Part shown: positions 53,035-56,171 of the stretch, one piece after another
Numbering within the stretch: position 1 is the first letter of the stretch
Layout: each line of letters begins with the position of its first letter
From: Candidatus Bathyarchaeota archaeon
Lineage (GTDB): Archaea > Thermoproteota > Bathyarchaeia > Bathyarchaeales > Bathycorpusculaceae
Assembly (NCBI GenBank): GCA_963702095.1
Contig: OY969706.1
Coordinates: forward strand, 1,504,001-1,568,000
Direction of reading: 5' to 3'
DNA length: 64,000 nt
The notes under the pieces: generated by a model
Seen by the model: only the letters and a program-made list of their open reading frames with translations
Told to the model about the DNA's origin: nothing
Databases searched by the model: none
Program-made: the position numbers and the translations under genes

Positions 53035-53958
53035 TTGGAGTTCAAAGGGCGAGATATAGTTTCAATCGAAGACTTCACACAAGCAGAAATCAACCACGTC
53101 CTCGACGTCGCCAAATCCATGGAGCCACTGGCCAAAGGCGGCTCAGACATGCTAAAAGGCAAAATCTTAGCCACACTCTTCTTTGAACCCAGTACACGCA
53201 CACGCTTAAGCTTCGAAAGTGCCATGTTCAAACTCGGCGGCAACGTCATCGGATTCGCCGAACCAGAAGTGTCCTCCATACGCAAAGGCGAAAACCTTGC
53301 CGACACAGTTCGCACAGTCGAAAACTATGCTGATGTCATCGCCTTGCGCCACAGTTTAGAGGGCTCTGCAAAGTTGGCGGCGGAATTCAGCAAAGTCCCA
53401 ATCATTAACGCGGGCACAGGCGCCGAGGAGCATCCCACGCAGGCACTAATTGACCTCTACACGATGCGAAAAGAAAAAGGCAGAATCGACGGCTTAAAAG
53501 TGGCGCTGTTAGGCGACTTGCGCTATGGACGCACCGTGCATTCACTGGCATACGCGTTGGCACTCTATAACGCCGAGCTCTTCTTGGTGTCGCCTGAAAC
53601 TCTGCGTATACGCAAAGATGTACTCTCAACCATCAAAAACACAGTTCAAGTAACAGAAGTCAGCAATCTTGAAGAAATCATTTCGCAAATCGACGTTCTC
53701 TACGTGACCCGCATCCAGAAAGAACGGTTCCCCGACGCCACCGAATATGCTAAAGTCAAAGGGGCATACCGAATCGACCTCAAAACGCTGGAGAAAGCCA
53801 AAAAAGACCTCATTATCCTCCATCCGCTGCCCCGCGTGGACGAAATTGCCCCAGAAGTGGACAACACGCCACAGGCCCGCTACTTCCAGCAGGTTTGGAA
53901 TGGCATCGTGGTGCGGATGGCGCTGCTCTCAATGGTGCTGGGCGCCGTCGAATATTAG
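53035..53958 (+). CDS. pyrB: Aspartate carbamoyltransferase catalytic subunit
   Basis: [45 protein letters not shown]. Confidence 0.97.
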
Positions 53959-56171
53959 GTTGCTACAAACCGGTCGAAGGTTGTTATTGTGCTCATTGAG
54001 CCGCAACTGGGGCATTTGTGAAGCGCGCCGTAATGGTTTTTCTTGCAGTTGCTGCAGTAGCTGACGGCGCGGTTGTAGGTGAAAAAGTCGCTTGCGTCAT
54101 TCTCGATTATCCGCTTCGTTAAGTCCATAAGGGCTTCGGCGCTGAATTCGGCGCCTTCCAACTCATACAAATCCAAGCAGCCGCCTGCGTTTAAGCCTTT
54201 AGTCAGCTTCGCCACCTCAATCGTGCCATGCGGCGCCACCAGTGGCTGAGCAGCCTTGATTGTGACCCGTTTGACTGTTGAATAGAAGGGTTTATCGCGT
54301 GTCCCAGAGAACTTTACTTTGGCAACACCATAGCGTTCAATGTCAAGTTGCGCTAGACGCTCGGCGGCTTCATGGTTGCCCAACATGGCGGCGTAGAGGC
54401 GTTTACCGTATTTTCTACCCACCTTCTGCTTAAACGCCAACAGATTGGCGATGACTTCTTCTGCGAAGGCACCGCTTTCTTTGGAGTCCATCGGTTTCTC
54501 GGTGAAGGCTTCGATGGCTTCTCGGAATCCTGCAAAGCCAATTATGCGTGAACAGTTTTCCAGTCGGAAGTAGGTGTCGCCGTTTGTTTTCTGGAGCAGA
54601 AAGGGCAAGTTATTTTTTCCGAACTGTTTTAACGCGTTACTCTTTATTGTTAGGGCGCGGGCGGCGAATTCAAAGCGTTCTTTTAAGAACTCGTTGAATT
54701 TGTTTTGGTCTTTGCCGCATTCCATGGCGATTCGAGGCATGTTAATGGTTACGAGGCCCAAACAGCCTGTGCGCAATGTGTCGGTTTCCCAGTCGCCTGT
54801 GAGGTCCGAAGCTAACTTCATGCCTGAGGAGGAGTAAGCGAAGTTTTCACTGTCTTTTTTTGTCAGGTTAGCAAAGTATGGGGCGCCGCCTTGAGTTGCG
54901 AGTTGATGAGCTTTAAGTAGAACGGTTTTTGCTTTCTCGTCTGTTAGGGCGGCGCTATTAATTTTTATAACCAGTTTGGGACTCAACATCGGTTTAGCGG
55001 CGCTTTCTTCTAGGAAAATGTCGAGGATAAGCGACGCCAAAAGCAGGCTTTCCCCTGTGTAGTCGCCATATTTGCCGCATGCTTTGCCGTTTGGTCCCAC
55101 GGCTTCTTTTTCTGCGGTAGGTTTAGGAATGGAGAGCTCCAGCCCCAAAGTAGCTTCTGCATGCTGGTTGAGGTTTAACATGAATATTCGTAGGCTTTCT
55201 TTCAGTTTTGCTGCTTCTAAACCCTTAGCGTAGGGTGCTAAAGCGACATTGAAGTAGTTAAAAGTCTGAGTGTAATTCGCTTCTTGGTTAGCATGCAACA
55301 ACACGTTAAAAGCGATGGATAATGCAAACTTGAAGTCTTGGGGTGGCTCCATGGATATCCATTTGGGGTTCTCGAGTTTTATGCCGCTTTGGAGGAAGTA
55401 GCGGATGTCATGGATGACTTCGTTGGGTTTAAGAATCCACGTGCCTAAGCCGTCGATGTGGATGGCGCCTGAAAGCTGCGCATCCGCTATGTCACGTGGA
55501 AAAATGTTGAGTAAAGCGTATTCTCCGAAGACCGCCTCTCCAGCGATGTCGATGGCTTCAGCGCAATCCGCCGCGACATCTTTAGATTCGATGAGTGCGG
55601 TGACTTCGTGTATGGGCATGCCCACGCGGGTCAATTTATGTCGGTAATCTTCATAGCCTTTCTCAACAAGGATACTGTTAACGACTTCACGGATAAGCGG
55701 CGCAGTTAAGTACTTAATTTTGGATTTAGTCAGCCGTTTCTCAGCTTCTTTAGCAGCTTTCTGAGCGAGTTCAGCAGGAACCTTAGCTTCTTTTATTAGT
55801 GAATTAGCAATTTTGTTTGCGTCAAACTCTTCAAGCGTCAAATGCGACGTGCGCACAACCATGCCTTTTGGCTTGACCGCTTTTTTCTCAACCCGGTCGG
55901 CGACGTCAAGCACCATCTTGCCGAGGTCAGTGAGGTAATACTTTTTTGCTTCCACATCCGCTTCCACCAACTCTGCTTTTAAGAGGAATTTGAGGTGGTA
56001 GGCGAATCGGCCTGCGTCTCGGGTGGGATTCATTTTCAGTTGATTCATCAGTTCAGTGTAGGAGAGGGCGGATTTGTCGAAGAGTAAATTGAGGATTTGC
56101 AGTCTCAGGGGTGAAGAAACGGCTTTGAGAACTTTGACGCCGCGGCTGCGAACTGGCTGCTGATTTACCAT
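53955..56171 (-). CDS. ArsR-like wHTH + ATP-cone + catalytically inactive class III ribonucleotide reductase (NrdD-like) fold
   Basis: [31 protein letters not shown]; [27 protein letters not shown] cone; [19 protein letters not shown], CxxC..CxxC; no catalytic Cys and no RxxGY glycyl motif. Confidence 0.85.

Follow-up and report, generated by a model that had tools for sequence, protein, structure and literature searches.

Why would an archaeon keep under selection a gene related to ribonucleotide reductase (RNR) genes whose product has lost the residues of radical chemistry? The question is raised by one gene in a window of 64,000 nucleotides (positions 1,504,001 to 1,568,000 of contig OY969706.1, assembly GCA_963702095.1) from Candidatus Bathyarchaeota archaeon, of the class Bathyarchaeia (family Bathycorpusculaceae). 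The window lies in a single 2.94-Mb contig, and the genome is 90% complete by marker genes. In the product of this gene, hereafter the dead gene and the dead protein, an ArsR-like winged helix-turn-helix (wHTH) and an ATP-cone precede a class III RNR (NrdD) barrel devoid of catalytic residues. We hold, with moderate confidence, that it is best read as a pseudoenzyme acting as a nucleotide-sensing regulator of deoxyribonucleoside triphosphate (dNTP) supply. The gene and its parts, all on the minus strand, are the following.

53955..56171, minus strand: whole gene (protein P0001), made of wHTH, variant ATP-cone, dead NrdD barrel and Zn site (open reading frame, Pfam, AF2).
55878..56132, minus strand: ArsR-like winged helix-turn-helix, residues 14-98, order a1-a2-a3-aR-b-b-a5 (Pfam, AF2, conservation).
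55614..55862, minus strand: variant ATP-cone and conserved linker, residues 104-186, with a VRTS hairpin and YRHKLTRxGxP (Pfam, conservation).
54072..55541, minus strand: ten-stranded NrdD-like barrel body, residues 211-700, without catalytic residues (Pfam, Foldseek, dN/dS).
55407..55430, minus strand: KPNEVIHD, with Glu251 in place of the NrdD first-strand Cys (alignments).
54822..54836, minus strand: YSSSG, Cys-free remnant of the thiyl-radical finger loop (alignments).
54003..54056, minus strand: Zn site CxxC-10-CxxC, C706, C709, C720 and C723 (alignment, 50 of 50 members).
53958..53978, minus strand: FDRFVAT followed by the stop, cut-off remnant of the glycyl-radical loop, with Ala737 at the Gly column (alignments).

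The gene is a single uninterrupted frame of 738 codons (738 aa) with an ATG start and zero internal stops, as the initial annotation of the locus, made from the letters alone, had described it. That annotation had also proposed an N-terminal ArsR-like wHTH and an ATP-cone fused to an NrdD scaffold, and Pfam recovers all of these above the respective cut-offs: HTH_5 (PF01022) at residues 20-70 (27.0 bits, cut-off 22), DUF7347 at residues 14-89 (32.4 bits, cut-off 27.6), ATP-cone (PF03477) at residues 104-177 (30.1 bits, cut-off 25.8) and NRDD (PF13597) at residues 211-734 (210.6 bits, E 5.7e-62). The NRDD profile is covered at positions 17-538 of 562, and its glycyl-radical end is without match. 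Against the NrdD equivalog TIGR02487, the dead protein scores 226.5 bits, below the cut-off of 326.35, so that by this curated test it is a relative of NrdD and not a member; despite this score, source annotations name it “anaerobic ribonucleoside-triphosphate reductase”, which is the mislabelling as nrdD that had been suspected. The metalloregulator ArsR model NF033788 gives 31.5 bits, under its cut-off of 55, which does not place the protein in that subfamily, and among NCBIfam hits at E up to 1 there was no match to the NrdR model TIGR00244. An AF2 model of the whole protein (mean pLDDT 88.0, pTM 0.78, low confidence only at residues 1-5 and 99-102) shows an ArsR topology at the N-terminus (helices 6-17, 21-33, 38-44 and 53-65, strands 69-72 and 77-80, helix 82-98). 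Compared with the PDB by Foldseek, it has class III RNRs at all of ranks 1-36, with a best E of 4.2e-26 and a TM (target) of up to 0.74.

The available part of PMC11226230 gives Cys171 and Cys416 as the first-strand and thiyl cysteines of NrdD, and describes a radical Gly with its Tyr and a phosphate-binding loop containing Glu581. The dead protein was compared in alignments with P0121 (the active NrdD of this same genome), 12 active counterparts from related genomes and 95 wider-family representatives (600-830 aa, clustered at 50% identity). By BLASTP it is 24% identical to P0121 (E 5e-31) and colinear with it over residues 113-725, from the cone to the Zn site, a colinearity that the initial annotation had noted. 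Each residue of radical chemistry reported as missing is indeed gone. The first-strand Cys motif, PYCVGWD or PFCQEHD in active NrdDs, reads KPNEVIHD, with E251 at the Cys column; the finger loop SMCCR or SQCCR has become YSSSGM (residues 446-451), exactly at the coordinates first proposed, 54822-54836; the substrate loop TPAE(G/S) is replaced by LGNHE and YTNSS by YSTVK; and where active enzymes have RVVGY or RITGY at the C-terminus, the dead protein has DRFVAT and then the stop, the predicted end at FDRFVAT falling at the glycyl-radical site with Ala at the Gly column. Two strings given in the initial annotation as canonical, YMGCR and TGNL, agree in position and not in letters with the active relatives aligned, which show (S/Q)(M/C)CCR and (T/M)GS(I/L). 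The Zn cysteines C706/C709/C720/C723 are retained, and are invariant in 50 of 50 aligned diverse members.

This loss extends over the family, with few exceptions. Among 20 wHTH-type proteins from 20 Bathyarchaeia loci, none has the first-strand Cys, all 20 miss TPAE and YTN, and 17 have a finger block entirely free of Cys, while the 12 active NrdDs, neighbouring or paralogous, retain every one of these motifs. The same catalytic residues are absent from 15 members of other classes, and the complete set Cys + Cys + Gly-Tyr is kept in only 6 of the 95 representatives. The TPAE block varies across the family (LGNHE, RPGDE, TTDDK, ITFEP). All 120 of 120 close homologues terminate at the same column as the query, and in this genome's family the tail is removed altogether. 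The Nitrosopumilaceae members have a barrel that is much more degenerate and stops just past the Zn site, their wHTH and cone remaining near the Bathyarchaeia versions. Judged from these alignments, what marks the family as a whole is that cysteines and substrate loop are gone; most members have lost the Gly too. Two loci, L029 (379-2691, plus strand) and L031 (4508-6754, plus strand), show an RxxGY-like string, RRPEGY or RVPEGY, one residue out of register; in both, as in L042, which bears another relic described below, all other catalytic motifs are gone.

The dead gene is under purifying selection, as the initial annotation had argued from its open frame. Compared with the closest orthologue, the ratio of non-synonymous to synonymous substitution rates (dN/dS) is 0.086 for the whole gene; taken separately, the wHTH has 0.05, the cone 0.03 and the barrel 0.10. 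All these values are rough, dS being 1.4 and thus near saturation; the frame is unbroken in 12/12 orthologous loci taken for this measure. Averaged over 120 homologues (72-100% identical), identity to the query reaches 0.93 for the wHTH and 0.91 for the cone, with 0.70 for the barrel and 0.52 for the linker. In 50 members reaching down to 27% identity, 23 columns are invariant, and 17 of them fall in the wHTH, the cone and the cone-barrel linker: L30, H59, Y78 and G84 in the wHTH, and 13 columns in the cone and linker region (104-186). The barrel body contributes just two, G235 and N477, and the remaining four are the Zn cysteines after the barrel (706-723). Motifs common to NrdDs, namely ADAxLSGxIHI, NxPRIA and RLAxxD, are retained in the barrel. 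This pattern indicates that the strongest constraint bears on the DNA-binding head and the cone, and not on the former enzyme part.

Where did such a protein come from? A tree of 44 barrels was built with IQ-TREE (quick search, LG+G4) and rooted on two classic NrdDs of our choice. A branch with an SH-aLRT of 100 separates the 26 dead sequences from all the others and, with this rooting, the dead clade stands beside active NrdDs that have a variant cone; nine dead rows are of deviant composition, and the Nitrosopumilaceae group calls for a long-branch warning. An identical variant cone, together with a YxRLGxPVxDV linker, is present in the adjacent active NrdDs of Bathyarchaeia, and this genome's own active NrdD has a classic cone. 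On the basis of this tree, the simplest history would be a single duplication of a variant-cone NrdD, with chemistry lost and a wHTH gained. In six active NrdD representatives scanned (three of ~770 aa, three intein-bearing), no wHTH was found and the N-terminus gives ATP-cone matches only, in two stretches for three of the six. The 18 representatives of at least 950 aa keep TPAE (18/18) and RxxGY (16/18), and we read them as active NrdDs. Large insertions are found near query positions 250, 340, 440 and 595 in such long NrdDs (P0176, P0178, P0189, P0191, P0202-P0204, P0209, P0220 and others); in three that were scanned, P0176, P0204 and P0220, Pfam detects intein and LAGLIDADG domains. No intein or large insertion was seen in any dead member.

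We then quantified how widely the family is spread. A search of 201 sampled genomes of the class with the whole protein (E up to 1e-20) gave a match in 183; by hand count 46 of these 183 are weak, with E values of 1e-21 to 1e-37 such as an ordinary NrdD would give, and a strong full-length match (E up to 2.3e-79) is present in 137 of the 201. All 36 matches in family f18 are weak, and the wHTH form was not found there. In the phylum, 301 sampled genomes were searched with residues 1-215 alone (wHTH and cone) at an E limit of 1e-8, and 211 have a match, 186 of them at E up to 1e-39 by hand count. Per-family counts are high in f33 (43/43), f39 (24/25), f46 (18/18) and f41 (11/11), and this search found none in f42 (0/20), f48 (0/10), f50 (0/10), f43 (0/6) or f47 (0/5). 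Family f33 consists, by source names, of the aerobic Nitrosopumilus and its kin; the proteins there are labelled “anaerobic ribonucleoside-triphosphate reductase”, “helix-turn-helix domain-containing protein” or “ATP-cone domain-containing protein”.

NrdR, the RNR repressor to which the initial annotation had likened the dead protein, is found in 37 of the 201 class genomes: G000, 26 of 27 genomes of the window's own family f1, and 10 of 43 of f18, with no other family represented. Carriers of the wHTH form are mostly without NrdR, f18 lacks the wHTH form and partly has NrdR, and only f1 has both; relatives not being independent, this is a pattern and not a test. The proposed NrdR analogy is thus half sustained: the dead gene stands upstream of nrdD or nrdJ in many lineages, most of its carriers being without NrdR, and a genuine NrdR is present in this very genome.

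The neighbourhood links the dead gene to nucleotide supply. We examined 20 Bathyarchaeia loci, of which 9 had been picked for two adjacent matches already seen and 11 were picked blind. In 12 of the 20, the next gene downstream, on the same strand, is an active nrdD (~700 aa), 9 of these 12 coming from the preselected loci; among the blind-picked loci, an RNR gene comes next in 4 of 11 (nrdD in 3, and in 1 a partial class II hit where the contig ends). In Nitrosopumilaceae, the B12-dependent nrdJ (TIGR02504, 707.6 bits for a cut-off of 399.95) follows the dead gene immediately in 13 of 15 loci; in 1 it is adjacent and divergent, and the remaining contig is too short to tell. In five out of five near-complete (99%) genomes of this group, PF13597 matches fall in the dead gene only, and NrdG is above cut-off in none of the five (best 51.9 bits, cut-off 131.15; the TIGR02491 type was not searched). 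The other recurrent neighbour is pyrB, whose convergence with the dead gene had been noted at the outset:

53014..53958, plus strand: pyrB, convergent, phylum-wide syntenic partner (TIGR00670, 397 bits, cut-off 237).

Its stop codon overlaps that of the dead gene by 3 nt, the two open reading frames with their stops sharing 4 nt (53955-53958). Counting the window, 17 of 21 loci have pyrB or its cluster next to the NrdD-like unit, and in Bathyarchaeia the recurrent order is dead gene, nrdD, convergent pyrB, pyrI. In other classes, pyrB or pyrI is nearby in 10 of 20 loci, 3 of the 10 being weak carbamoyltransferase-like hits. The convergence with pyrB is therefore an old synteny, and in this genome's family it looks like a remainder after nrdD left the slot between the two genes. 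Two types of active NrdD are observed in the slot downstream of the dead gene, the variant-cone type in most Bathyarchaeia and a classic type with a KRDG cone in the window's own order; at L042, of the same order, the intervening nrdD is an orthologue of this genome's nrdD (65% identity). The presence of both types in the same slot (L042:4948-7056 compared with the L023-L031 neighbours) suggests replacement of the enzyme gene in place.

The genome's own RNR genes are found outside the window.

L001:766-4031 (genome about 1575526-1578791, 7.5-10.8 kb past the window end): nrdR-nrdD-nrdG operon.

A separate active RNR and its activase, which the initial annotation had recommended looking for, are thus both present, about 15.4 kb from the start of the dead gene. 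The nrdR product (149 aa) scores 153.2 bits with TIGR00244 (cut-off 124.65); the active NrdD P0121 (708 aa; NF006126, 1060.8 bits; TIGR02487, 563 bits) has SMCCRL and RVVGY; and the adjoining nrdG (TIGR02495, 187.5 bits, cut-off 131.15) is the sole NrdG2 above cut-off. All 24 radical-SAM matches to TIGR02495 lie outside genome positions 1504001-1568000, so that the window is without NrdG of this type (the TIGR02491 type was not searched), in line with the absence of an adjacent activase stated earlier; no class I/II RNR barrel (PF02867) was found in this 90%-complete genome. The promoter of the nrdR operon is conserved across the genus, with a TATA followed by an inverted repeat, GTAGTGT..ACACTAC, which likely corresponds to NrdR boxes. 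The confinement of NrdR to the window's own family f1 and part of f18 suggests that the NrdR of this bacterial-type operon was acquired. With a true NrdR at the head of the nrdD-nrdG operon, the dead protein is no stand-in for a missing NrdR in this genome.

Does the dead gene, or any of the genes it might control, carry a recognisable operator? Footprinting of its upstream region gave one element.

56230..56245, minus strand: conserved BRE/TATA-like element, TTAGTTAAGTTTAAAC, which forms the promoter of the dead gene and lies 58 nt ahead of its ATG.

The full 16-mer TTAGTTAAGTTTAAAC is present in 5 of 8 genus sequences (the gene itself and 4 of 7 orthologues), and the core (A/C/G)GTTTAAAC, or a close variant, in 14 of 14 upstream rows (13 distinct loci, L040 repeating L019). 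GTTTAAAC is not enriched in the genome (71 found for 57 expected), and the extended motif occurs once. The conserved upstream block, TTAGTTAAGTTTAAAC followed by AATA(G/T), was tried as an operator and rejected, a BRE/TATA and initiator region explaining the block. The pyrB promoter ACAAAGTGTTATTTAGCA is conserved across the family (window 52990-53020 and orthologues). No more than about 20-25 nt separate it from the predicted TTG start of pyrB; pyrB may be leaderless, or its start mis-set. In most of 13 Nitrosopumilaceae loci, the nrdJ TATA is preceded, at a distance of ~40 nt, by a conserved imperfect palindrome, GGTGTCAA-N5-6-TTGA(T/A)CC.

L049, L050, L057, L064, L070-L073: palindrome loci, in the intergenic region between the dead gene and nrdJ.

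In the same group, the two promoters (nrdJ and dead gene) have 11.6 and 14.2 GATC per kb, about 3-fold the 4.5 of other intergenic sequence of these loci, with 4.3 in their coding sequence, in regions that are orthologous and loci that are not independent; no such enrichment was found in 9 Bathyarchaeia tandem loci or in the promoters of the window's own family. From sequence comparison, the Nitrosopumilaceae palindrome is a candidate operator, to be taken as a lead only.

From the architecture, the conservation and the linkage described above, we infer DNA binding, ligand binding and a regulon, in a mechanism that might run as follows. A duplicate of an archaeal variant-cone class III RNR would have shed its radical chemistry and acquired a winged helix of ArsR type at the N-terminus. 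The dead barrel would dimerise through the same two helices as NrdD, placing two winged helices on a DNA operator. The conserved cone, and possibly the barrel, would bind adenine or deoxy-nucleotides, with a shift in conformation or oligomeric state, and the output would be transcription of nucleotide-supply genes, ancestrally the nrdD or nrdJ just downstream and perhaps pyrB/pyrI; in this genome's family, nrdD would have been relocated under an acquired NrdR. As to the dimer, a two-copy model of the barrel (residues 205-700) scores 0.48, compared with 0.00 for the best of 3 controls; of proteins with solved structures, 20 of 30 one-chain pairs reach the mark for this score, as does 1 of 23 single chains. 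Contacts agree between runs to at least 92%, with a partner pLDDT of at least 87, and the modelled interface consists of helices about 281-293 and 325-337. NrdD dimers having already been solved, this model may show likeness to the NrdD dimer and is no proof of binding.

Several observations weigh against a nucleotide-sensing regulator of dNTP supply. Some concern the ligand. The cone hairpin is (V/L)VRTS, here VRTS, compared with KRDS in the genome's own NrdD and KRDG in cones generally, and according to the available part of PMC9110341 it is the K50/R51 pair of NrdR (S. coelicolor) that binds nucleotide phosphates; R107 of the dead protein is invariant, and either stands one position out of register with this basic pair or is in register given a one-residue hairpin insertion. 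The substrate-phosphate loop TPAE is absent, and the stretch of Prevotella copri NrdD that carries the specificity site and loop 2 (Glu290, Asn298 and 304-311, as given in the accessible sections of PMC11226230) did not align with the family profile. With a non-canonical cone and an unaligned loop-2/specificity region, reading of the (d)NTP pool through cone and specificity site stays conjectural. Others concern the loss of catalysis: about 15 of the 89 representatives without the full catalytic set have, in our own reading, a Gly at the radical column, and L042 (L042:7298-9622, minus strand) has TGCRF, that is a Cys at the thiyl column. The remaining ones concern the targets. No operator was found, and the upstream block of the gene and the nrdR-operon and pyrB promoters of the genus have no evident common motif; in this genome, the dead gene is 15 kb from an nrdD whose operon has its own NrdR; in non-Nitrosopumilaceae classes other than Bathyarchaeia, an RNR gene adjoins in just 1 of 20 loci; and a conserved neighbourhood can be inherited synteny instead of regulation.

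A broader proposal goes further, and we put it forward as a tentative one, less probable than the regulatory role itself. The family would be an ancient, phylum-spanning switch of DNA-precursor supply made from a dead class III RNR, and the archaeal counterpart of bacterial NrdR. Nucleotide pools would be sensed by the variant ATP-cone carried on a dimeric pseudo-RNR, and the switch would govern transcription of the resident RNR class (nrdD in anaerobes, nrdJ in aerobic ammonia oxidisers) as well as pyrimidine synthesis (pyrB/pyrI); in f1, NrdR would have been horizontally acquired, and the old regulator kept for other targets.

Which other roles could the same observations support? The dead protein could be a DNA-bound factor that works outside promoter control, such as a chromatin or replication sensor coupling dNTP supply to DNA synthesis. 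A conserved wHTH and the failure to find a promoter operator speak for such a factor; we give it a small chance, for in two classes the dead gene immediately precedes an RNR gene, a placement more in keeping with transcriptional control on the spot, and no tie to replication genes emerged in this analysis.

Slightly less probable, in our view, is a non-catalytic partner of a working RNR, tuning its activity in a heterodimer or complex, with the wHTH serving protein contacts or being secondary. The NrdD-like dimer interface kept in the modelled barrel, the frequent adjacency to nrdD and the cone of the same variant type as in adjacent active NrdDs would all suit this role. It is harder to reconcile with the wHTH being the most conserved part, and with this genome, whose active NrdD carries a cone of classic type and shares no more than 24% identity with the dead protein. 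In Nitrosopumilaceae, the five near-complete genomes hold no other NrdD-like gene, and the neighbour is a class II nrdJ, whose dimer partner the dead protein could hardly mimic; the lack there of a second NrdD or of an NrdG above cut-off speaks against its being no more than a partner of an active NrdD.

That the protein is still an enzyme, its barrel serving another, non-radical reaction or nucleotide hydrolysis, we regard as improbable: the barrel is under purifying selection and keeps the motifs common to NrdDs, but the active-site positions vary freely, G235 and N477 are the only invariants of the barrel body, and in Nitrosopumilaceae the barrel has degenerated with wHTH and cone conserved. 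Finally, a decaying pseudogene, or an assembly or frameshift artefact hiding an RxxGY tail, has nothing in its favour except a C-terminus shorter than in other lineages, and is refuted as far as sequence comparison reaches by the end column common to all close homologues, by the low dN/dS and whole frames in orthologous loci, and by the overlapping pyrB stop, which leaves no coding space downstream.

Two side observations concern neighbouring frames. Just upstream of the dead gene, on the same strand, the window has an agmatine deiminase-like and an N-carbamoylputrescine amidase-like gene (56285-58140, minus strand), both under NCBIfam cut-offs and overlapping by 76 nt, an adjacency kept within the genus only. 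At L025:9059-14065 (minus strand), a P-type cation ATPase frame runs stop-free into the wHTH-dead-NrdD, giving a 1668-codon open reading frame, for which a fusion, a sequencing error or a run-on by chance could account.

If the dead protein is indeed such a regulator, it would be a clear case of a radical-enzyme fold recycled as sensor or scaffold for a transcription factor. Regulation of RNR genes in most archaea is an open question, for which this family offers a conserved candidate regulator, and its presence in cultivable ammonia oxidisers as well as uncultured Bathyarchaeia makes the question experimentally approachable. The label “anaerobic ribonucleoside-triphosphate reductase”, given even in Nitrosopumilus, can mislead metabolic reconstructions as to anaerobic capacity. 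We found no description of a wHTH-cone-dead NrdD architecture, nor of an RNR fold used as a regulator, in the literature searched (subscription literature being outside its scope), and the accessible portion of bioRxiv 10.1101/2022.04.23.489257 holds nothing on inactive or helix-turn-helix forms. The family is undescribed in that literature and mislabelled as an enzyme, and it is probably a regulator tied to dNTP supply.

How does it compare with known systems? Closest in design is NrdR (TIGR00244), rare in archaea according to the part of PMC9110341 available. NrdR binds tandem NrdR boxes and represses bacterial RNR operons in answer to ATP/dATP. Both have a DNA-binding domain and an ATP-cone, both are tied genomically to the resident RNR class, and the spread of the dead family over Bathyarchaeia families is largely complementary to that of NrdR. 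They differ in that NrdR is a Zn ribbon and cone of about 150 aa, whereas the dead protein has an ArsR-type wHTH and an extra dead RNR barrel of ~540 aa; the cone of the latter has VRTS in place of the phosphate-binding K-R pair of NrdR, and the two coexist in this genome. With class III NrdD (PF13597, TIGR02487; structures 1hk8, 4coj, 8p2s and 9d3x), it shares the fold, a colinear sequence and the C-terminal Zn site, and with the active NrdD clade of Bathyarchaeia the variant cone. Unlike these enzymes, it lacks the cysteines, TPAE, YTN and the glycyl-radical loop, has a wHTH, and is present in genomes without an NrdG over cut-off. In transcription factors derived from enzymes, such as BirA, PutA and NadR, the fold of a metabolic enzyme joined to a DNA-binding domain senses the metabolites of its own pathway. 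Those proteins are mostly still active enzymes, whereas in the dead protein the enzyme fold is catalytically dead.

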